From Candidatus Aminicenantes bacterium (GTDB lineage: Bacteria; Acidobacteriota; Aminicenantia; S016-38): 64,000 nucleotides of DNA. Below are positions 33,090 through 43,755 of this stretch, in pieces. Location of the stretch: positions 524,162-588,161 of the forward strand of contig JAMOUJ010000005.1 of assembly GCA_027068075.1 (NCBI GenBank), read 5' to 3'. Within the stretch, counting starts at the first letter, position 1; each line of letters opens with the position of its first letter. The translations under genes and the position numbers were made by a program. The notes beneath the pieces are model-generated. The model was given only the letters and a program-made list of their open reading frames with translations. It had not been told where the DNA came from and ran no database searches.

Positions 33090-34445
33090 TTAACCCACAA
33101 AGTATTTAAGAAAAACCAGGAGGGTGGAAGGAAAAATTCCGAGTTCCAGGACCAGGAAGGTTGAGGTGAACATGGCGAGGATGCCTGTGGAGTAATAATA
33201 GCCGATGCCGGGTCCCTCCTTCATGTAAGAAACCAGTACCACCCGCAAATAATAATAAACGCTTACCAGAGTCGTCAGGACCGCCACCACCACCAGGGGC
33301 CAGAATCCGGCATCCCCCACCTCTGCGAATAGGAGGAATTTCGCCAGAAAGCCGGCGGTGGGGGGAAATCCTGCCAGGGAGACCATGAAGAAGGCCAGGA
33401 AGGCCGAAAGGTAGGGGTATTTTCTGGAAAGCCCCTGAAAATCCTTAAGGGAATTTTTCTCCAGGAAGGAGGAGATAACGGCGAAGGCCCCCAGGTTCAT
33501 GAATCCGTAGGCGGCCAGGTAAAAAAGAAGCGCCCAGGCCCCGGCCTTTCCCAGGAGGAGGCCCATGGCCATGTAACCTGCGTGGGATATGCTGGAATAG
33601 GCCATTAACCTTTTGATGTTTTCCTGCTTAAGGGCCACCAGGTTTCCGTAGAGCATGGAGAGGACGCTGGAGCCCAGGATAAACCACTTTACGCCGGGGT
33701 GTATCACGAAGTCCGAGATTCTCAGAAGCATAAGGAAGCCTGCGGTTTTGGTTACCACCGAGAAGAAGGCAGTGACCGGCGTGGGACTCCCCTGATAGAC
33801 ATCCGGGGTCCAGAAGTGAAAGGGGAAAAGGGAGACCTTGAACATGAGGGAGGAAAGAAGCAGGAGACCGGCGCCCAGGGCCAGGGGGGATGGATTGGCT
33901 GCCACCCGGGGGTCCAGAAAGAAACTTCCCCCGGCTGCGTAGTAAAAGGCCATTCCCATTACGAAGAAGACCGAGGCCATCACCCCCAGGATGGCGTATT
34001 TCACCGAGGCTTCCCGGGATAGTTCATCCTTCCTCATCCCTGCCAGGGCATAATTGGCCACCGATAGGATTTCCATGCCAAGAAAGGCCACCAGGAGGTG
34101 GCGGGTGGTTACCATAACGAGGGCTCCGGCGGTGGAAAGGGCCAGAAGGATGTAAATTTCCCCTTCCCTTATGTTTAATTTCAGGTCGTAACCGTCGGTT
34201 ATAAGAAGGGTCAGAAGGGCAAAAATGAGGATTAGCACCCCTGCCACAATTCCCATGCTGTCCTGGACCAGGAGTCCTCCCATGTAGGTTCCCCTTCTTC
34301 CCCACATGAAGAACTCCGCTGCCAGGGCGGCCGCCATTCCGGCGTAGGATGCAAATTTAGCCCACCGCCTTCCCGCCCACAAGTCCAGAAGGAGGGCCGA
34401 TAGAGAGAAGGAAACCAGAATGGCCAGAGGAAGCACGCCTATCAC
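33090..34445 (-). CDS. nuoN: NADH-quinone oxidoreductase subunit N
   Basis: 14-TM antiporter-like subunit, last in the J-K-L-M-N order. Confidence 0.9.
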   Translation of the reverse strand: MIGVLPLAILVSFSLSALLLDLWAGRRWAKFASYAGMAAALAAEFFMWGRRGTYMGGLLVQDSMGIVAGVLILIFALLTLLITDGYDLKLNIREGEIYILLALSTAGALVMVTTRHLLVAFLGMEILSVANYALAGMRKDELSREASVKYAILGVMASVFFVMGMAFYYAAGGSFFLDPRVAANPSPLALGAGLLLLSSLMFKVSLFPFHFWTPDVYQGSPTPVTAFFSVVTKTAGFLMLLRISDFVIHPGVKWFILGSSVLSMLYGNLVALKQENIKRLMAYSSISHAGYMAMGLLLGKAGAWALLFYLAAYGFMNLGAFAVISSFLEKNSLKDFQGLSRKYPYLSAFLAFFMVSLAGFPPTAGFLAKFLLFAEVGDAGFWPLVVVAVLTTLVSVYYYLRVVLVSYMKEGPGIGYYYSTGILAMFTSTFLVLELGIFPSTLLVFLKYFVG

Positions 34446-35938
34446 CTTTCACCCCCATTTTCAAAGAGGTAAAGGGTTTTGTATTTCTGCTGGGTTATTT
34501 CCATCATGAGCCTGGCGGATTTTTCAAATTTTTTCAAGAAGAAATTTGGGGAAAGTCCCATCCACAGGAAAAGAATGACCAGGGGGACCATGATGAGAAC
34601 CTCCCTCAGGTTCATGTCGGGAAGTTTCAGGAAAACTTCGTTTTTCACCCTTCCCTGCATAACCCTCTGATACATTCGCAGAAGATAAACCGCCGAAAGA
34701 ATTACCCCCAGGGCAGCCAGGGCTGCGGCGGTTTTGTTCACCTCAAAACTTCCCAGAAACACGAGAAATTCTCCCACGAAGCCGTTGAGTCCGGGGAGTC
34801 CAATGGAGGAAAACACCGTTATCATAAGGAAGGCCGCCAGCACCGGAAGAGGCCTGGCCAATCCCCCCAGTTTTTTCATGTCCCTGGTATGGGTTCTTTC
34901 GTAAAGCATGCCGATAAGGAGAAAGAGGGCCCCGGTGGAAAGCCCGTGGTTGAGCATCTGATATATCCCTCCCATGTAGGACCTCAGGGAGAGGAGGAAA
35001 ATTCCCAGCATTACCACCCCCAGGTGGCTCACGCTGGAATAGGCTACGAGCCGCTTGGCGTCTTCCTGGACGAAGGCCATGGCCGCTCCGTAAATTATGC
35101 TTATCACGGCCAGGGCCAGGAGGTAGGGGAGGAAAAATTTGAAGGCCTGGGGGAAAAGGGGCATGGCCAGCCGTAGAAATCCGTACCCCCCCATTTTCAG
35201 CAGAACCCCTGCCAGGAGTACGGAACCGGCGGTGGGGGCCTCCGTGTGGGCGTCCGGCAACCATGTGTGGAAGGGAAAGAGGGGAACCTTTATGGCAAAG
35301 GCCAGGGCAAAGGCCAGAAACAGGAGAATCTGGCTCCCCCATGGGATACTTAGGGAGTAAAGTTGATAAAAATAGAGGGAATGGTGGGGAGAGTGTTTCC
35401 AGAGGTAAAAAATTCCCACCAGCATGAGGAGACTTCCCACCATGGTGTAGAGGACAAATTTAACCGTGGCGTAGAGCCTTCTCTCCCCTCCCCACATGCC
35501 GATGAGGAAATACATGGGGATAAGCATGGCTTCCCAGAAGATGTAGAAAAGAAAGAGGTTCTGGGCCACGAATACCCCCAGCATCCCGGTCTCCAGGAGC
35601 AAAATCATTATGTAGAACTCCTTTTCCCGCTCCTTTATGTACCGGAAGGACGAGGCCAGCGCCAGAGGAGAAAGGAGGGCGGTAAGAACTACCAGAACCA
35701 AACTTATTCCATCCATGCCCACATGGTAATTCAGACCGAAGCCTATCCACCTGGCTCTCTCCACGAACTGGGGGAAAGGATAATAGGGGTTGAAGTTCAG
35801 AAAGAACCACATTGAGAAAAAGAACACTGCGGATGAAACCCCCAGGGCGAAGTATTTTACGAAGTCGGTTTTTTCCCGCGGAACGAAGAGAAGAAGAATC
35901 GCCCCGGCCACGGGAAGGAATATCATGACGCTAGTCAT
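34442..35938 (-). CDS. nuoM: NADH-quinone oxidoreductase subunit M
   Basis: Antiporter-like subunit. The true ATG at 35938 overlaps the nuoL stop (ATGA). Confidence 0.9.
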   Translation of the reverse strand: MTSVMIFLPVAGAILLLFVPREKTDFVKYFALGVSSAVFFFSMWFFLNFNPYYPFPQFVERARWIGFGLNYHVGMDGISLVLVVLTALLSPLALASSFRYIKEREKEFYIMILLLETGMLGVFVAQNLFLFYIFWEAMLIPMYFLIGMWGGERRLYATVKFVLYTMVGSLLMLVGIFYLWKHSPHHSLYFYQLYSLSIPWGSQILLFLAFALAFAIKVPLFPFHTWLPDAHTEAPTAGSVLLAGVLLKMGGYGFLRLAMPLFPQAFKFFLPYLLALAVISIIYGAAMAFVQEDAKRLVAYSSVSHLGVVMLGIFLLSLRSYMGGIYQMLNHGLSTGALFLLIGMLYERTHTRDMKKLGGLARPLPVLAAFLMITVFSSIGLPGLNGFVGEFLVFLGSFEVNKTAAALAALGVILSAVYLLRMYQRVMQGRVKNEVFLKLPDMNLREVLIMVPLVILFLWMGLSPNFFLKKFEKSARLMMEITQQKYKTLYLFENGGER

Positions 35939-37761
35939 AACAACCCCCTGAGCGCTACGAATAGGGCTATTACGATGCCCGCCGCCATCCACAGGGCGTA
36001 ATCCTTCAGAAGACCTGTCTGGAGAAAAGATAAGAGTCGTCCCCCTTCCAGGGTGAGTTTTCCGCTGCCCAGGACGGCCCGATCTATCACCCCGGCGTCA
36101 AAATACCGGCTTACCGCCCTGGCACCCTCCCTGTAGGGAACCACGAAGAGGGCCTCGTATATTTCGTCCACATAATATTTATTGGTCAGAAGGGTATAAA
36201 GGAACCCCGTGCGAAGTCCCCGTTTCCTCTTTAAGTATATCCACCAGGCCAGGACGATGGCCGCCAGGGCCAGACCCACGCTCACTCCCATGAGGATCAA
36301 TTCCCTTTCGTGGGCGAGTTCCTCCAGGTGGATGTATCCCAGGGGTTTTAGCCATTGGTGAAAGGAAGAGAAGAACCATCCTGAAATTACCGAAAGAAGG
36401 GCCAGAATTTCCATGGGGATGGCCATAACCGGCGGTGATTCGTGGGCGTGTTTCCAGCCCCTGGGTTCTCCGTAGAAGGTCATGAAAATAAGCCTGAACA
36501 TGTAAAAGGCCGTAAGGCCTGCGGTGATAACGCCCACGGTCCAGAGGGTTTTGCTGTGAAGGTAAGCCTGGGCCAGGATCTGGTCCTTGCTGAAAAAGCC
36601 TGCAAATCCCGGGATCCCTGAAATGGCCAGGGCTCCTATGGTGAAAACCCAGAAGGTTATGGGCATTTTCCTGCGCAGGCCTCCCATTTCGCGCATGTCC
36701 TGGGTCCCTACGGCGTGAATAACGGAACCCGCCGCGAGAAAGAGAAGGCTCTTAAAAAAAGCGTGGGTGAAGAGGTGAAACATACCCGCGGATACAGCCC
36801 CCACCCCCACCCCGGTAAACATGTAGCCTATCTGGCTGATGGTGGAGTAGGCCAGAACCTTTTTGATGTCGTTCTGGACCAGGGCAATGGTGGCGGCCAG
36901 GGCCGCGGTAATTATTCCCACCCATGCCACGACCTCCAGGGCCAGGCCCGAGCGGGCGAAAAGGGGAAACAATCGGCTCACCATGTAAACCCCGGCGGTT
37001 ACCATGGTGGCGGCGTGGATGAGGGCGGAAACAGGAGTAGGGCCCTCCATGGCGTCGGGAAGCCAGATGTATAGAGGAATTTGGGCCGATTTTCCCGTGG
37101 CACCCAGAAAGAGAAGGAGGGCTGCCGCCGTGGCCGCCGTGGTCGGCAGGGAGGCGGCCCGGGAATTGATGTATTGAAAATCAAGGTTTCCCAGGAGGGT
37201 GAAGAGAAGGAATATTCCCAGGAGAAAGCCGAAGTCTCCCACCCGGTTTACTATGAAGGCCTTTTTTCCGGCGTCGGCGGCAGTATCGCGGTCAAACCAG
37301 AATCCTATGAGGAGATAACTGCACAAACCCACCCCTTCCCATCCTACGAACATCATGGGGAGGTTCGGGGCCAGGACCAGAAGAAGCATGGAGAAGGTGA
37401 AGAGGTTAAGGTAAGCAAAATACCTTCTGAAACCGGGATCTTCCCCCATGTATCCCACCGAATAAATGTGGATCAGGAAGGATACCCCGGAAACGGTGAG
37501 GGCCATGATGGAGGAAAGGGGATCCCAGAGAAGCGAAAAGTCCACATGGAATTTTCCCACGGAAATCCACGGGAAAAGATAAAAAACCGAGGGATGGTTT
37601 TTAAAGGTTGTGAAGGCTATTAAAGATGCCAGAAAGGATATTCCCACGGTGGCCGGAGAAAACCAGAAGACGGCCCTTTTTCCCAGAAATCTTCCCAGGA
37701 GGATGAGGACCAGGGCTCCCAGGGCAGGAGCCAGAACTATTAGTGCAAGAAGGAAACTCAT
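35935..37761 (-). CDS. nuoL: NADH-quinone oxidoreductase subunit L
   Basis: 608 aa, antiporter-like, with the long C-terminal extension typical of NuoL. Confidence 0.9.
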   Translation of the reverse strand: MSFLLALIVLAPALGALVLILLGRFLGKRAVFWFSPATVGISFLASLIAFTTFKNHPSVFYLFPWISVGKFHVDFSLLWDPLSSIMALTVSGVSFLIHIYSVGYMGEDPGFRRYFAYLNLFTFSMLLLVLAPNLPMMFVGWEGVGLCSYLLIGFWFDRDTAADAGKKAFIVNRVGDFGFLLGIFLLFTLLGNLDFQYINSRAASLPTTAATAAALLLFLGATGKSAQIPLYIWLPDAMEGPTPVSALIHAATMVTAGVYMVSRLFPLFARSGLALEVVAWVGIITAALAATIALVQNDIKKVLAYSTISQIGYMFTGVGVGAVSAGMFHLFTHAFFKSLLFLAAGSVIHAVGTQDMREMGGLRRKMPITFWVFTIGALAISGIPGFAGFFSKDQILAQAYLHSKTLWTVGVITAGLTAFYMFRLIFMTFYGEPRGWKHAHESPPVMAIPMEILALLSVISGWFFSSFHQWLKPLGYIHLEELAHERELILMGVSVGLALAAIVLAWWIYLKRKRGLRTGFLYTLLTNKYYVDEIYEALFVVPYREGARAVSRYFDAGVIDRAVLGSGKLTLEGGRLLSFLQTGLLKDYALWMAAGIVIALFVALRGLL

Positions 37762-38057
37762 CCCTTCATCTCCGATGCTATGTCTTCGGTGGCCTTCCCC
37801 TTATCCCTTATGGCTACGGCTATGGCCGCCAGGGCCACCGCCACCTCCGCCGCCGCCACCGTAAGTATGGCAATTACCGCCGCCTGGGCCTCGGTGGGTG
37901 AAGACCTTGTGGCGAAGACTAAAAGAGCGAGGTTGGCCCCGGAAAGAGCCACTTCCCCGGAAAGCAGCATGGTCAGCAGGTCTTTCCTTACGAAAAATCC
38001 GGCTATTCCGGCGGATATTAAAAGGGCCGAGAGAAGGAAGAGGGCCGTGGAACTCAT
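37758..38057 (-). CDS. nuoK: NADH-quinone oxidoreductase subunit K
   Basis: 99-aa three-TM protein with a conserved Glu in the TM helix. 4-nt overlaps on both sides. Confidence 0.85.
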   Translation of the reverse strand: MSSTALFLLSALLISAGIAGFFVRKDLLTMLLSGEVALSGANLALLVFATRSSPTEAQAAVIAILTVAAAEVAVALAAIAVAIRDKGKATEDIASEMKG

Positions 38058-38521
38058 GACCTCCTCCTCATGAGGACCAGGGAAGAGACCACCGCCGTCA
38101 AAATCAGCAGGGAGGTGAGTTCAAACACATAGAGGTATTTACCCAAAAACAACTCTCCGAGGGCGGATACCGAGGTGGAAACCCTTCGGAAGACAGAACG
38201 ACTTCCCAGGAAAATAAGGCTCAACTCCGTACCCAGCGAGATAAAAATGAGGAAGAAGGCCCATTTGATGCTCCTGCCTTCCCGGGACCTTCCGGAGACC
38301 AGCCACGCCACCATGAGGAAGGCTACCACCACCGCTCCGGCGTAAAGGAGAACATAGATCCCCCCCAGGAAGGTATAGCCCATTAGGGCGAAAACTCCCC
38401 CCAGGGCGGAAAAAACCGCCACCAGGGAAACCACGGACTTATCTTCCTCCGATGCAAAGAGGAAAATCCCAAGGCCTGCGGCGATTAAAAGGAAAAGAAG
38501 CCAGAAGGCCAGGTCCAACAT
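38054..38521 (-). CDS. nuoJ: NADH-quinone oxidoreductase subunit J
   Basis: 155-aa five-TM protein in the position preceding nuoK. Confidence 0.8.
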   Translation of the reverse strand: MLDLAFWLLFLLIAAGLGIFLFASEEDKSVVSLVAVFSALGGVFALMGYTFLGGIYVLLYAGAVVVAFLMVAWLVSGRSREGRSIKWAFFLIFISLGTELSLIFLGSRSVFRRVSTSVSALGELFLGKYLYVFELTSLLILTAVVSSLVLMRRRS

Positions 38522-38556
38522 AACACGGGGATTATATCAGGGTATAGAGTTTCAAA

Positions 38557-40035
38557 TCAAATTTCGGGTTTTTCGGAGGATGCCCTCACCGCCCTGTCGT
38601 GGGCCCAACTGCGGATTTTCTTTACCTGCTCCGCCATGGTGGTGGACAGGGGAACGGTATTGGTGAATATTTTGTAGAGGTCGTCCTCCTCCACGGGTCT
38701 CCCCTGGTTGAAGGCCTCGTACATGGCGGATATTATCGCCTGCTCTATTTCCGCCCCGGACCATCCCTTTGTAATCTGGGCCAGTTGAGGGATGTTGAAC
38801 TTGTCCGGGTCAATCCCCCTCTTTTTGAAGTGAACCCGAAAAATTTCCTCCCTTTCCTTTCGGGAGGGAAGGTCCACGAAGAAAATCTGGTCAAACCTCC
38901 CCCGGCGGAGGAGTTCCGCCGGTAGCATGTCAATCCTGTTGGCGGTAGCCCCCACGAACACCCCCTCTTTGTGCTCCTGCATCCAGGTCAGAAAATAGCC
39001 CAAAATCCGGGCGGTGGAATCGGCGGTGTATTTGTCCGTGATTCCGCTTTCAATCTCGTCCAGCCATAGAACCGCAGGGGATGCGGATTCCACCACCTTC
39101 AGGGCCCTGATAAAGGCCTCCTCAGGAAGGCCTGCGATCCCCGAGTAAACGAGGTTCATGTCCAGTCTGAAGAGGGGAAGTTCCCATAGGGTGGATACCG
39201 CCTTTATTATTATGCTCTTTCCGCACCCCGTTATCCCCATGACCAGAAGGCCCCGGGGCACATCCAGTCCGTATTTCCGGGCCTCGGGAGAAAAGGCCCG
39301 TTTCCTCTTTATCAACCATTGTTTAAGGTTATCCAGCCCTCCGATGTCCTCCAGTCGCAGTTTTTCCGTAATGTATTCCAGGACCCCCTCCTTCCTCATT
39401 ATCTGCCGTTTTTCCTCCTTTAGGGCCTCAATTATGCCCGCATCCAGACTTTTCCTCTGGTGGGTGACCCTCCTCAGGGCGAAGGTGGCTTCGTCCACGG
39501 TGAAGCCTTGCAGGGCCACGGCCATCTGGTTGACATCCTCCCGGCTGAGGTTTATTTTCGTTCCCTTTTCTCCCCTCTCCTTTAGAAAAGAGACCACCAG
39601 GGAAAGCATTTCCTGGAATTCAGGAAGGGGGTAATCCACCACCGCCACATGCCTCTTCAGTTCCTCCGGTAGTTTGAAAATAGGGGATAGGAGAAAAACC
39701 CTTTTGGGCTTTCCCCTGATGGAGAAATAGGTATCCCTGAACTTCCGTATGACCTCCGGATTCTGAAAAAGGTGGTGCACATCCTTGAGGATGAAGAACC
39801 CCTTTTCCTGCTGAACTATGAAGTCCAGGGCCTGGATGAGGGAGCGGGTTTCCTCCTCCGGGTTTCCATCCCTTTTAAAACCCCCGGTGTTGGTCCACAC
39901 GAAGGGGGAAGTCCCCAGGGCAGAGGAGGAAAACTCTTCCAGGACTTCCTCCACCCTGTTTTCCTCCCAGGAGACTATGTAAATAAAGGGATAGCCCGCT
40001 GAGATTAATTCCCTCAGTTCCTCCCTTACCTTCAT
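38557..40035 (-). CDS. Classical-clade AAA+ ATPase with an uncharacterised ~230-aa N-terminal domain
   Basis: Unusual Walker A LVMGITGCGKS, Walker B VLWLDEIES, and a second-region-of-homology/arginine finger GATANRIDMLPAELLRRGRFDQIFFVDLP that closely matches the FtsH/katanin clade. The N-terminal half has no P-loop. Confidence 0.75.
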   Translation of the reverse strand: MKVREELRELISAGYPFIYIVSWEENRVEEVLEEFSSSALGTSPFVWTNTGGFKRDGNPEEETRSLIQALDFIVQQEKGFFILKDVHHLFQNPEVIRKFRDTYFSIRGKPKRVFLLSPIFKLPEELKRHVAVVDYPLPEFQEMLSLVVSFLKERGEKGTKINLSREDVNQMAVALQGFTVDEATFALRRVTHQRKSLDAGIIEALKEEKRQIMRKEGVLEYITEKLRLEDIGGLDNLKQWLIKRKRAFSPEARKYGLDVPRGLLVMGITGCGKSIIIKAVSTLWELPLFRLDMNLVYSGIAGLPEEAFIRALKVVESASPAVLWLDEIESGITDKYTADSTARILGYFLTWMQEHKEGVFVGATANRIDMLPAELLRRGRFDQIFFVDLPSRKEREEIFRVHFKKRGIDPDKFNIPQLAQITKGWSGAEIEQAIISAMYEAFNQGRPVEEDDLYKIFTNTVPLSTTMAEQVKKIRSWAHDRAVRASSEKPEI

Positions 40036-40052
40036 GGGCTTATTTTAACATC

Positions 40053-40080
40053 TTGTTTTGGTTCTTTAAATTTATATAAT
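40053..40080 (+). promoter_or_regulatory. Sigma70-like promoter for the cNMP/FHA gene in an AT-rich divergent region shared with the AAA gene
   Basis: TTGTTT, 16 nt, TATAAT (40075-40080), then GGAGG and ATG 40113. The opposite strand has TTGAAG, 17 nt, TAAATT for the AAA gene. Confidence 0.45.
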
Positions 40081-40112
40081 AGATTTAAGGCCTTCAACGG
40101 AGGTAAAAACAT

Positions 40113-40847
40113 ATGAAAGGCTTGGAAAGCGAAGTTATAAAGGTCCCCAAGGGGGTGGTGATCTTCAGGGAAGGAGAGGACGGTAATTTCATGTACCTCA
40201 TTTTGAAGGGGAAGGTGAAGATCTTCAGGAGGGGGGAGGAGATAGCCACCCTGGGAAGGGGGGATTTCTTCGGAGACCTGGGTCTCCTCACCGGCTTGCC
40301 CCGGGTGGCGGATGCCATTTCGGAGGAGGATTGTGAACTGGTGCTCATAGACGAAAACAGTTTTGACAGAATAATAAAATCAGACCCCAACCTCAGCATC
40401 AGGATTTTGAGGAAACTGGCCCACCGGCTAAGGGATATGTACAAACTCATGGATAAAATGGAAAGGGAGGAGACGGCCATAGAGGTGGAAAACGAACCCC
40501 TTCCGCCCAACATAAAGGCCTGGTTTGAACTGGAAGAGGAAGGTGAGGTTTTTCCCCTGGAGCAGAGGATTACCTTTCTGGGGAGGAAAGACCTTTCCAG
40601 TTCCTTCGTTCCCCATGTGGACCTTTCTCCATACGATAGAAATAGGTACATTTCCAGGAGGCACGCCCGGGTGATATTCCGCAACGGAAAATTTTACATA
40701 AAGGAAGAGGTGGGGGTATTGAACGGTACTTTCCTGGACAACAGGAGAATTAAACCGGGCTTTCTCTACGACCTCAAAGACGGCACCCGGGTAACCCTGG
40801 GGAGGCTTACCCTGACCTTCCACACCAGGGTGAAGCAGGATCAATAA
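40113..40847 (+). CDS. Cyclic-nucleotide-binding (CAP-family) domain fused to a C-terminal FHA phosphothreonine-recognition domain
   Basis: N-terminal cNMP-binding beta-barrel (FGDLGLLTGLPRVADAIS with the Gly/Arg of the phosphate-binding cassette). C-terminal FHA motifs (GR..., SRRHARV, NGTFLDNRRI, DGTRVTLG). Confidence 0.8.
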   Translation: MKGLESEVIKVPKGVVIFREGEDGNFMYLILKGKVKIFRRGEEIATLGRGDFFGDLGLLTGLPRVADAISEEDCELVLIDENSFDRIIKSDPNLSIRILRKLAHRLRDMYKLMDKMEREETAIEVENEPLPPNIKAWFELEEEGEVFPLEQRITFLGRKDLSSSFVPHVDLSPYDRNRYISRRHARVIFRNGKFYIKEEVGVLNGTFLDNRRIKPGFLYDLKDGTRVTLGRLTLTFHTRVKQDQ

Positions 40848-41590
40848 CCTTCCAGAAGCCTTTCCCCCAGGACCTCCGGAAGTCCCTCCTTGACGATCCT
40901 CCTTTTAGCCTTTTCCGCCGGGTATGAGAAGCGGTAGAACTTCACCGCCTCCTCCTGATCGTCGTAGATAAGGAAGGTTCCCCGGGGGTTTCTGTCCCTG
41001 GGTTGACCTATGGAGCCCGGGTTTACGGCATAGAGAAAATCTTTTTTCAATTTTATGTGGGTTCTTCCTTCTTCCAGGGGATGGTAAATGGCCACAAAGT
41101 CCTTCTCCGGCGGAAATTCGTAGACCGCCGGTACATGGGTATGGCCGAAAAAGCATATCCTTTCCCCGGAAAACTCCACGGCCTCCAGGGCGTCGGCGGG
41201 GGTGAATATGTAATAGTCCTCGTCAAAGGGGGCTCCGTGGCAGATGCAAACGCCTTCCTTGAGCCTCAGGGGACCCCTCTTCATGCTCTTTAGAAAATTA
41301 AGGGAGAATTCGTTGAGTTTTTTCTTCGTCCAGTCCAGGGCCTCGGCGGCCACGGGATTGAAGAGCATGGAGGTTTCCAGCCCCAGGGCCACCTTGTCGT
41401 GGTTCCCCATCACGGCCACCAGGTTGGGCAGGGCAGCCAGGGCTTCCACCACTTCGTTGGGATTGGCCCCGTAGCCCACGGCATCACCCAGGAAGACATA
41501 GGTGTCGGGCTTAAGCCTCCGGGCCTTTTTGAGGAAACTCTGGAAGGCTTCCCAGTTAGAGTGAATGTCCGAGAAGATTAAGTGCTTCAC
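40841..41590 (-). CDS. Calcineurin-like metallophosphoesterase (PPP/ApaH-like signature set)
   Basis: Motifs FSDIHSN (D-x-H), FLGDAVGYG (GDxxDRG-like), GNHD and GHTH. The likely GTG start at 41590 overlaps the lipA 3' end by 35 nt. Confidence 0.75.
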   Translation of the reverse strand: MKHLIFSDIHSNWEAFQSFLKKARRLKPDTYVFLGDAVGYGANPNEVVEALAALPNLVAVMGNHDKVALGLETSMLFNPVAAEALDWTKKKLNEFSLNFLKSMKRGPLRLKEGVCICHGAPFDEDYYIFTPADALEAVEFSGERICFFGHTHVPAVYEFPPEKDFVAIYHPLEEGRTHIKLKKDFLYAVNPGSIGQPRDRNPRGTFLIYDDQEEAVKFYRFSYPAEKAKRRIVKEGLPEVLGERLLEGY

Positions 41591-42428
41591 TATACAGATC
41601 CTCTGCCTTGTAGGAACTCCTGACCAGGGGACCGGCCTCCACCGCCAGGAAACCCATCCGCCGGGCCAGGTCCTTGAGTTCCTGGAATTCCTGAGGATAA
41701 TAATATCGCTCCACCGGCAGGTTTTCAAATCCTGGCCTGAGGTATTGCCCCACGGTGAGAATTTTAACGCCGGCGTTGATTAGGTCCTTCAGGGTGGTTT
41801 CAATGTCTTCCTTTTCCTCTCCCAGTCCCACCATAAGCCCGGATTTGGTGAGCATCCCCTTCCCGGCGTAGAATTCCAGGACCCTCAGGCTCCTGCCGTA
41901 GAAGTTTTTGGGCCTACCTATTTTCGTGTAGAGTTTCCGGGGTACCTCTATGTTGTGATTGATGACGGAGGGGGGATTTTCCAGCAGAACCTTCAGGTTG
42001 TCTTCCCTGCCCTGGAAGTCCGGGATGAGGACCTCCACCCCTGCCCGGGGAAGGAGTTTCTTTATCTCCTCCACGGTCTTCAAAAAATGGTGGGCTCCTC
42101 CGTCGGGGAGGTCGTCCCTGGTGACGGAGGTTACAACCACATAGGAGAGACCCATTTCCCTGGCAGCCTCTGCCACCTTCCGGGGTTCCTCCGGGTCCAG
42201 GGGAGCCGGTTTCCCGTGGTTTACCGCACAGAACCCGCATCGGCGGGTACATATGTCTCCCATAATCATGAAGGTGGCGGTTCCCCCTCCCCAGCATGTG
42301 GAGATGTTGGGGCAGCGGGCCTCTTCACAGACGGTGTGGAGACCCCTTTTACGCAGGATTTTTCTTATGCGGAAGTAGGTTTCCCCACCCGGGAGTTTTC
42401 TTCTTACCCAGGGGGGAACCCGCTCCAA
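41556..42428 (-). CDS. lipA: Lipoyl synthase
   Basis: CEEARCPN auxiliary-cluster motif and CTRRCGFC radical-SAM CxxxCxxC. Confidence 0.95.
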   Translation of the reverse strand: MERVPPWVRRKLPGGETYFRIRKILRKRGLHTVCEEARCPNISTCWGGGTATFMIMGDICTRRCGFCAVNHGKPAPLDPEEPRKVAEAAREMGLSYVVVTSVTRDDLPDGGAHHFLKTVEEIKKLLPRAGVEVLIPDFQGREDNLKVLLENPPSVINHNIEVPRKLYTKIGRPKNFYGRSLRVLEFYAGKGMLTKSGLMVGLGEEKEDIETTLKDLINAGVKILTVGQYLRPGFENLPVERYYYPQEFQELKDLARRMGFLAVEAGPLVRSSYKAEDLYSEALNLLGHSL

Positions 42429-42429
42429 A

Positions 42430-42642
42430 TCAAACTCCTCCTCTTTCCCTTCTCTGCTTCTTCCTTATCCTTTTGAGGGCCTGAAGTTTTTTCAGCCTCC
42501 GCCTTACTCCGGGCTTGAGGTACACCGAGTGCTTCTTAATTTCGCTGATGATGGCTTCTTGCTGGACCTTTCTCTTGAATCTCTTAAGAGCGGACTCAAA
42601 GGACTCGCCTTCTTGAACCACTACATAGGCCAAAGTAATCAC
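42430..42642 (-). CDS. rpsU: 30S ribosomal protein S21
   Basis: VVVQEGESFESALKRFKRKVQ...KPGVRRRLKK is the S21 signature. Confidence 0.9.
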   Translation of the reverse strand: MITLAYVVVQEGESFESALKRFKRKVQQEAIISEIKKHSVYLKPGVRRRLKKLQALKRIRKKQRRERGGV

Positions 42643-42681: not shown

Positions 42682-43755
42682 TCAAGCCCCCGGCGAAAAT
42701 TCCCGGGAAAGCCTCCTGAGGGCTTTCAATTTGTCCCGGTCCCCGAGTTTTGAACTCTTTATGGCCCTTTCAAGCACCTCTATGGTTTTTTCGTAAACCT
42801 CAAAGTCCACCGGGTAAGGGATTCTGTCCTTTCCACCGTGGGCGAAGGAATACAGGGCCGGGTCCTCGTAACTGGGGGGTGCCCCGTAAACTATGTCGGC
42901 CACCAGGGACAGGGCCCTTACGAACTTGGCTCCTATTCCCTTTATCGTGAGCAATTGAAGAAGGTCTTCCGGGGCCCTTTCGTAGGTTTTGGCCATGGCC
43001 CTGAGGAGGTTTTTGGGCTTCATGTCCGAGGAGACCAGGGCATGTCTTCGGGGCATGTTCAAAATCCGGGTGAATTCCCGGGTTATTTTACCGGGGTTTT
43101 CCCTGGAGAGTTGAACCACGAGTTCCGTGTTTTCAGCGGATTTTCGGGAAGTAAGGTCCAGGACCAAATTTTCCCTCCTCATGGAGGAGATGCCGGTGTG
43201 GGGTTCCCGGGTAAGGTCCTCGGCTTCCCAGGAGAGGTAGTGATACCTCCTTGCCAGCCTCAATTCTTCCTTCATCCCCTGCTGAATTACGGCCCACTTC
43301 TTATCCGGGGTGAAGAAAATGGTGTGGTGGTAGATGGAGTAGCCGTCCTGGAGGAGGACGGAATCCACCTTGGCAGTGATGCGGCTGGCCCTTATTATGG
43401 GCTGTGGATCAAAGGCGAACCTTTCGGCCAGGGATTCCACCTCCTCCGGGGTCCTCCTGGCAGTCGCTCCCTTTCCCCCCGCCGCCATTATCAAGGGGGT
43501 GGAGATCTCGGCCAGGGCTTCCTTCAGGGCGGCGGTGGTGGTGGTAGTAAGCCCCGAGGAATGCCAGTCAAAACCCAGAACACAGCCCAGGGCCTGAAAC
43601 CATCCGGGATGGGAAAGCCTCCTCAAAAACTCCTCCGGAGGAAATTCCTCCAACATGGCTTCGGCCATGGCCCGGGCCAGTTTTACCATCCTGGAAAAGA
43701 GCCAGCGGGGTGCCCTTCCCCTGTGAAGGGGCAGATTGGCGATTCCTTTCCTCAC
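42682..43755 (-). CDS. DUF763-family protein (function unknown; family mostly archaeal)
   Basis: The N-terminus (IANLPLHRGRAPRWLF) is, as far as I recall, characteristic of DUF763. 357 aa. Confidence 0.5.
   Translation of the reverse strand: MRKGIANLPLHRGRAPRWLFSRMVKLARAMAEAMLEEFPPEEFLRRLSHPGWFQALGCVLGFDWHSSGLTTTTTAALKEALAEISTPLIMAAGGKGATARRTPEEVESLAERFAFDPQPIIRASRITAKVDSVLLQDGYSIYHHTIFFTPDKKWAVIQQGMKEELRLARRYHYLSWEAEDLTREPHTGISSMRRENLVLDLTSRKSAENTELVVQLSRENPGKITREFTRILNMPRRHALVSSDMKPKNLLRAMAKTYERAPEDLLQLLTIKGIGAKFVRALSLVADIVYGAPPSYEDPALYSFAHGGKDRIPYPVDFEVYEKTIEVLERAIKSSKLGDRDKLKALRRLSREFSPGA

Follow-up and report, generated by a model that had tools for sequence, protein, structure and literature searches.

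The window analysed here, a 64,000-nucleotide stretch of the Candidatus Aminicenantes assembly GCA_027068075.1 (contig JAMOUJ010000005.1, forward-strand positions 524,162 to 588,161), encodes a 244-residue protein that is a true fusion of an N-terminal cyclic-nucleotide-binding (CNB) domain and a C-terminal FHA domain, referred to below as the cNMP-FHA protein. We read it as a stand-alone signalling adaptor in which cyclic-nucleotide binding would control docking onto phospho-threonine (pThr) sites, and we put the probability of this reading at roughly 55%. Its gene has no conserved gene partner; the two genes that adjoin it in the window, one for a metallophosphoesterase (MPE) and one for an AAA+ ATPase, belong to conserved contexts of their own.

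An earlier, sequence-only reading of this DNA had described the same pair of domains and had suggested profile searches for cNMP_binding, FHA and Metallophos as a check, and all three were matched. In the cNMP-FHA protein, cNMP_binding (PF00027) covers residues 10-91 (E 1e-21, 77.1 bits against a cut-off of 27.5) and FHA (PF00498) covers residues 157-230 (E 2e-11, 44.6 bits against a cut-off of 20.7). An AlphaFold2 (AF2) model made with 12 family sequences as input has a mean predicted local distance difference test (pLDDT) of 83 and a predicted template modelling score (pTM) of 0.51, and the predicted folds, an 8-stranded beta-barrel and a beta-sandwich, agree with the Pfam assignment of both halves. 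The best Foldseek matches of the model are M. tuberculosis CRP, GlxR and CAP; against CRP-type structures about 119-120 residues are aligned, extending beyond the barrel, at E 1e-9 and about 30% identity, and the cAMP-bound CRP, GlxR and SthK CNB domains are matched as well. A sequence search of the PDB returned the CNB domains of PKG, PKA-R, Epac and CRP. The open reading frame (ORF) starts with ATG, 8 nt downstream of a GGAGG ribosome-binding site. Each domain is a textbook one, and public data, which contain an exact copy of the protein, already list the fusion in automatic Pfam annotation.

The N-terminal half shares with the CRP/FNR proteins (E. coli CAP, M. tuberculosis CRP, C. glutamicum GlxR) a CNB beta-barrel followed by a long C-helix. 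This helix in CRP is both the dimer interface and the lid, and on the strength of the model the predicted helix at residues 92-120 is its equivalent. The likeness ends there: the CRP/FNR proteins carry a C-terminal helix-turn-helix, whereas the cNMP-FHA protein has an FHA domain on a flexible linker, with Asp for Glu and Val for Ser in its phosphate-binding cassette. Pfam gave no HTH_Crp match in the protein, the C-terminal half being FHA. The best NCBIfam match is the CRP model, at 45.7 bits (cut-off 266) and over residues 7-111 only. With FHA where the helix-turn-helix is expected and a CRP score this far under the cut-off, a CRP/FNR transcription regulator was excluded. The connection between the two domains is loosely conserved. 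Residues 111-130 have a pLDDT of 54-61, the segment from residue 108 to residue 135, which contains the linker, spans 28-65 residues among the family sequences, and the median identity of the linker across the family alignment is 10%.

Relatives of the protein were collected in a scan of one genome per species, in which at least 519 of at least 600 candidate stretches encode a cNMP-FHA relative. Comparisons of loci use the best 80 of these (L001-L080), all from other species, and conservation counts refer to the alignment of the window protein with the same 80 (81 sequences). Almost all of the best 80 come from Acidobacteriota, namely Aminicenantes, Vicinamibacteria, Thermoanaerobaculia and Holophagales. 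The closest, L001 and L002, are from Candidatus Aminicenantes metagenome-assembled genomes at 82-89% identity, and further Aminicenantes orthologues (P0004, P0006 and P0007) are found at 64-66%. In addition, a profile search over 1.84 billion representatives, each standing for one 50%-identity cluster, yielded 1077 representatives at E<=1e-30, some of which are multi-CNB proteins; among the top 150, roughly 90 are full-length single-copy proteins of 240-370 residues. The family is passed on vertically across Acidobacteriota.

Conservation is strict at both binding sites. All 81 sequences have the cassette core GDFFG and Arg64, and all 81 have the FHA residues G157, R158, D160, S181, R182, R183, H184, N204 and T206, which include all five residues of the pThr-pocket signature (G157, R158, S181, H184 and N204). 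In this alignment the two sites show strict purifying selection. Since Arg64 and the pThr signature residues are invariant, it is reasonable to read the protein as a sensor joined to a pThr reader.

The identity of the ligand, dimerisation, the allosteric coupling and the targets are what we infer in the following scheme. The N-terminal half would act as a CRP-like cyclic-nucleotide sensor, with the FHA domain, on its flexible acidic linker, in place of the CRP DNA-binding domain. A cyclic nucleotide, for which cAMP is the default candidate, would bind the CNB domain and reposition the C-helix. This shift may alter the availability or the pairing of the FHA domains, which would dock on pThr sites produced by Hanks-type kinases that are encoded elsewhere in the genome, and second-messenger and Ser/Thr-phosphorylation signalling would thereby be joined.

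Several observations weigh against such an adaptor. The long, variable, low-confidence linker and the pTM of 0.51 disfavour a rigid CRP-style hinge. In the window clade the cassette carries Asp55 and Val65, and with them affinity or specificity for the nucleotide could be changed or lost. No ORF of the 64-kb window showed the Hanks-kinase motif HRDxKxxN when searched by pattern. Finally, literature searches yielded no characterised protein combining cNMP and FHA domains, and hence no experimental precedent.

Known systems resemble each half of the proposed adaptor. GarA/OdhI and FhaB/FipA of Actinobacteria are, like the cNMP-FHA protein, small and soluble, with a single FHA output, a complete pThr signature and an N-terminal regulatory element. 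GarA/OdhI, however, is regulated by an N-terminal motif that can be phosphorylated and that folds back onto the FHA domain, whereas in the cNMP-FHA protein the regulator would be a whole CNB domain, and the protein scores 24-30 bits with the GarA/OdhI and FhaB/FipA models against cut-offs of 125-200. The design of a CNB sensor with one output is shared with Bd1971 (cNMP-EAL), the mycobacterial Pat proteins (cNMP-GNAT), the SthK/MloK1 channels and Pycsar CNB-TIR proteins, which are matched at the level of the domain. The output of those fusions is an enzyme, a channel or a toxin, in contrast to the phosphopeptide-recognition domain found here.

The cassette of the window protein bears on the ligand. 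In CNB domains its Arg contacts the cyclic phosphate and its Glu the 2'-OH of the ribose. Where the canonical cassette has Gly-Glu and a Ser, Thr or Ala after the Arg, the window has Gly-Asp and Arg-Val. The sequence-only reading had pointed out the retained Arg and the Val in PRVAD, both of which are seen in the alignment; the Asp at position 55 in place of Glu is an additional departure. Position 55 is Glu in 77/81 sequences and Asp in 4/81, and position 65 is Thr in 42, Ser in 24, Ala in 8, Val in 3, Asn in 2 and another residue in 2 (among them Ile in L001), which gives Ser/Thr after the Arg in 66/81 and Thr, Ser or Ala in 74/81. Given that Glu and Ser/Thr predominate to this extent, the ancestral cassette was the textbook FGE...PR[ST]A[ST]A. 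Asp55 and the altered residue 65 are limited to the window clade (the window and L001-L003 of the 81; P0001-P0008 in the protein alignment), and the distribution in the alignment indicates that the PRVAD form is a derived trait of one Aminicenantes clade.

That the two substitutions are confined to this clade speaks for a changed ligand. The CNB domain of the clade would then no longer sense cAMP or cGMP, as the sequence-only reading had considered possible from the Val, but would bind some other small molecule (another cyclic or a pyrimidine nucleotide) or serve only to dimerise and so present two FHA domains constitutively. The part of Pycsar effectors that senses cCMP and cUMP is matched by the domain as well (E 1e-13), although this match is not stronger than those to PKG, PKA and CRP. 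Furthermore, Arg64, GDFFG and the remainder of the cassette are invariant within the clade, which argues for a retained phosphate site, and Ala stands at position 65 in 8 other family members. PKA RI-alpha and Epac, which are true cAMP binders, carry Ala after the Arg and rely on backbone contacts to the phosphate; in Epac, a residue other than Glu is also tolerated where the cassette Glu normally stands. We consider a changed ligand unlikely.

The Pycsar similarity was found with PADLOC, in which the CNB domain (40113-40460) matches PycTIR at E 1e-13 and 49 bits; the AAA domain of the adjoining ATPase matches IetA (58 bits), and the MPE has no PADLOC match. The PycTIR match is probably generic CNB similarity. 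Even so, pyrimidine cyclic nucleotides should be kept in mind as possible ligands. A role in anti-phage defence (Pycsar, Iet) was rejected, as the PADLOC matches are at domain level only and the surroundings are housekeeping.

The stand-alone adaptor presupposes an FHA domain that reads phosphorylation. An FHA domain acting independently of phosphate in the manner of GarA/OdhI, with direct control of a housekeeping enzyme or complex, the cyclic nucleotide as sole input and no kinase, appears somewhat less probable still than a changed ligand. It would fit the surroundings of the gene: no kinase or phosphatase is conserved beside it in any lineage (nor does a cyclase recur, in the 80 loci and the orthologues at 64-66%), and the neighbours are housekeeping genes. 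The FHA region also gives weak matches to the OdhI and FhaB/FipA models (NCBIfam). The invariance of the five pThr signature residues in the 81 sequences is most simply explained by retained phosphopeptide binding, and Acidobacteriota genomes are generally rich in Hanks-type kinases, both of which speak for the pThr-reading adaptor instead. A GarA-style autoinhibitory pThr in the linker was considered and rejected: the single Thr there (EETAIE) is not kept in the 64-66% orthologues.

Features of the cNMP-FHA gene and its surroundings (positions in the window; residue numbers refer to the cNMP-FHA protein)
Feature	Position	Strand	Basis or remark
cNMP-binding + FHA protein gene (244 aa)	40113..40847	+	ORF, Pfam; apparently monocistronic
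Cyclic-nucleotide-binding beta-barrel, residues 8-91	40134..40385	+	PF00027; AF2 strands 8-79; Foldseek
Phosphate-binding cassette GDFFGDLGLLTGLPRVADA, residues 50-68	40260..40316	+	family alignment
Long C-helix (predicted), residues 92-120	40386..40472	+	AF2 helix; CRP-family structural alignment; NCBIfam CRP alignment 7-111
Acidic linker, residues 121-133	40473..40511	+	low AF2 confidence; variable length/sequence
FHA beta-sandwich, residues 134-240	40512..40832	+	PF00498; AF2 strands at pLDDT 80-95
AT-rich divergent spacer, 77 bp, AAA+/cNMP-FHA	40036..40112	.	promoter-like hexamers on both strands
MPE, SapH/3rqz-type, last gene of rpsU-lipA-MPE operon	40841..41590	-	overlaps lipA 35 nt, cNMP-FHA 7 nt
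Ycf46/SpoVK-type AAA+ ATPase, first gene ahead of nuoJKLMN	38557..40035	-	Pfam, NCBIfam; not linked to cNMP-FHA

From the usual pairing of FHA domains with Ser/Thr kinases and phosphatases, the sequence-only reading had proposed that the cNMP-FHA protein and the MPE could form a second-messenger-gated phospho-signalling module, and had taken an AT-rich region shared with the AAA+ gene as a hint of co-regulation. The arrangement itself is as described. The stop codons of the convergent cNMP-FHA and MPE genes overlap by 7 bp (tcaataa), and the divergent spacer between the cNMP-FHA and AAA+ genes is present, its conservation in close relatives being limited to the part proximal to the AAA+ start. 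The functional association did not hold up. When 13 window proteins were used as tblastn queries against the 80 loci, the AAA+ and MPE genes were both found to adjoin the cNMP-FHA gene only in L001 and L002 (2/80), and the case for co-regulation falls with this. The sequence-only reading had itself named a lack of co-occurrence with the FHA gene in other genomes as telling against its module, and this is essentially what was found.

At 64-66% identity (P0004, P0006 and P0007) the cNMP-FHA gene is flanked by a divergent gene for an Fe-alcohol dehydrogenase and by a TPR gene in convergent orientation. A second test clustered all ORFs within 5 kb of the cNMP-FHA gene in the 80 loci. The commonest neighbours overall are LD-carboxypeptidase, RecG, TrpS, ScpA, HolB and an RmlD-like protein, which are housekeeping and lineage-specific. 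LD-carboxypeptidase (LdcA), RecG, TrpS and ScpA are found at Thermoanaerobaculia-type loci; at Vicinamibacteria-type loci there are an RmlD-like reductase, HolB and, in addition, an unannotated protein of 473-626 residues. In GCA_027006605.1 the AAA+-nuoJKLM unit is on one contig and the cNMP-FHA gene on another, and both have other genes beside them.

Two of these lineage-specific arrangements deserve a description of their own. In L022-L080 (Thermoanaerobaculia/Holophagales-type) the order LD-carboxypeptidase, cNMP-FHA, RecG, TrpS, ScpA recurs, and at 27 loci the LD-carboxypeptidase gene ends about 53 bp upstream of the cNMP-FHA gene on the same strand, a hint that the two may be transcribed together, the carboxypeptidase being an enzyme of cell-wall recycling. 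The conserved protein of 473-626 residues, which has no Pfam match, is encoded upstream on the same strand in L015 (6491-7912, +) and in 18 other Vicinamibacteria-type loci; in 3/6 loci examined it is the immediate upstream neighbour, about 40-50 bp away. It is the sole unannotated recurrent neighbour and a possible lineage-specific partner. No homologue of it was found in the window.

The MPE gene was examined for its own family and context. Read as 249 residues from the GTG at 41590, its product is an exact match to a called public protein (P0169). It matches Metallophos_2 (6e-17) and Metallophos (7e-16) in Pfam and carries the generic calcineurin-like set of motifs SDIHSN, LGDAVGYG, GNHD, CHGAP and GHTH. 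The sequence-only reading had assigned it to the PPP family or to ApaH-like enzymes; it is a metallophosphoesterase, but the closer assignment fails. A PPP-family Ser/Thr phosphatase was rejected because the GDxHG, GDxVDRG and GNHE signatures are absent, and with NCBIfam the protein is under the curated cut-offs for both the ApaH symmetrical Ap4A hydrolase (NF001204) and the YfcE/MJ0936 phosphodiesterase (TIGR00040).

Fold comparison placed the MPE nearest to 3rqz (31.8), the Pyrococcus protein 1nnw (PF1291; 26.5) and the asymmetric Ap4A hydrolase/phosphodiesterase SapH (3qfm; 24.9). YfcE (16.4), Vps29 (16.1) and MJ0936 (15.5) follow, above calcineurin, PP5, ApaH and lambda PP (12.9-14.6). Grouping with YfcE/MJ0936-type diesterases had been named beforehand as a result that would speak against the module, and the outcome comes close to it, the 3rqz, 1nnw and SapH folds being nearer still. 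The protein shows full-length sequence and fold similarity to this last subgroup and has a complete dimetal site. It is thus a SapH/3rqz-type metallophosphoesterase and not a PPP phosphatase; SapH, the sole member of the subgroup with a deposited functional description, is 22% identical to it.

An operon of rpsU (S21), lipA and the MPE gene is conserved in Aminicenantes (window 40841-42642, minus strand; L088, L089 and L090). MPE orthologues of 63%, 51% and 47% identity still have this order, while the gene convergent to them varies, being sulfatase/TPR in one and DUF1848 in the others. The MPE gene begins either right at the lipA stop or before it; in the window its GTG lies 35 nt inside lipA. 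A gene for a DUF763 protein (42682-43755, minus strand; E 2e-121) is directly upstream of the operon, as it is in L002 and L088.

The AAA+ gene likewise has a context of its own. Its product, about 492-495 residues long, is of the SpoVK/Ycf46/Vps4 type and contains an AAA domain resembling CDC48-D2; it has more than 6000 relatives, and no Pfam match covers its N-terminal 220 residues. The gene heads nuoJKLMN both in the window and in the 71% orthologue of GCA_027006605.1, where it is divergent from a peptidase M24 gene. The gene is 35 bp upstream of the partial complex I set nuoJ, K, L, M, N on the same strand (33090-40035, minus strand), an order also found in L002 and L091; it is absent in a 52% AAA+ orthologue, in which aconitase follows. 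A search of the 64-kb window, spacer included, detected no Rfam family at gathering score and no tRNA, rRNA or riboswitch, even with several ribosomal-protein operons in the window.

Since the MPE and the AAA+ gene each have a separate conserved context, the three genes are independent units joined in one lineage. A local rearrangement in one Aminicenantes lineage brought the MPE and AAA+ genes beside the cNMP-FHA gene. That the three nevertheless make up one co-regulated, second-messenger-gated phospho-signalling unit, with the MPE as its protein phosphatase, is very improbable: orthologues at 64-66% identity and all 77 of the more distant loci lack the adjacency, the AAA+-nuo unit and the cNMP-FHA gene can lie on separate contigs, the MPE overlaps lipA in an operon kept to 47-51% identity while its convergent neighbour changes, it lacks PPP motifs and has 3rqz, 1nnw and the Ap4A hydrolase SapH as nearest structures, and convergent genes have no common promoter. 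What looks like a module of three genes came about by chance gene order and ought not to be passed on as a functional link.

For the family as a whole, we tentatively suggest, with more doubt than for the adaptor itself, an Acidobacteriota-wide node in which a CRP-like switch controls a pThr reader and so joins cAMP-type and Hanks-kinase signalling, and in which the thermophilic Aminicenantes clade (FGD...PRVAD) may have adapted its pocket to another nucleotide. The Acidobacteriota are an abundant and little-studied phylum, and the strict conservation of both binding sites implies that the cNMP-FHA protein is probably important in it. If sensor and reader are coupled, the protein would be one phylum's link of cyclic-nucleotide levels to Ser/Thr phospho-signalling by way of a small adaptor, and would provide a simple system in which to study crosstalk between the two pathways.

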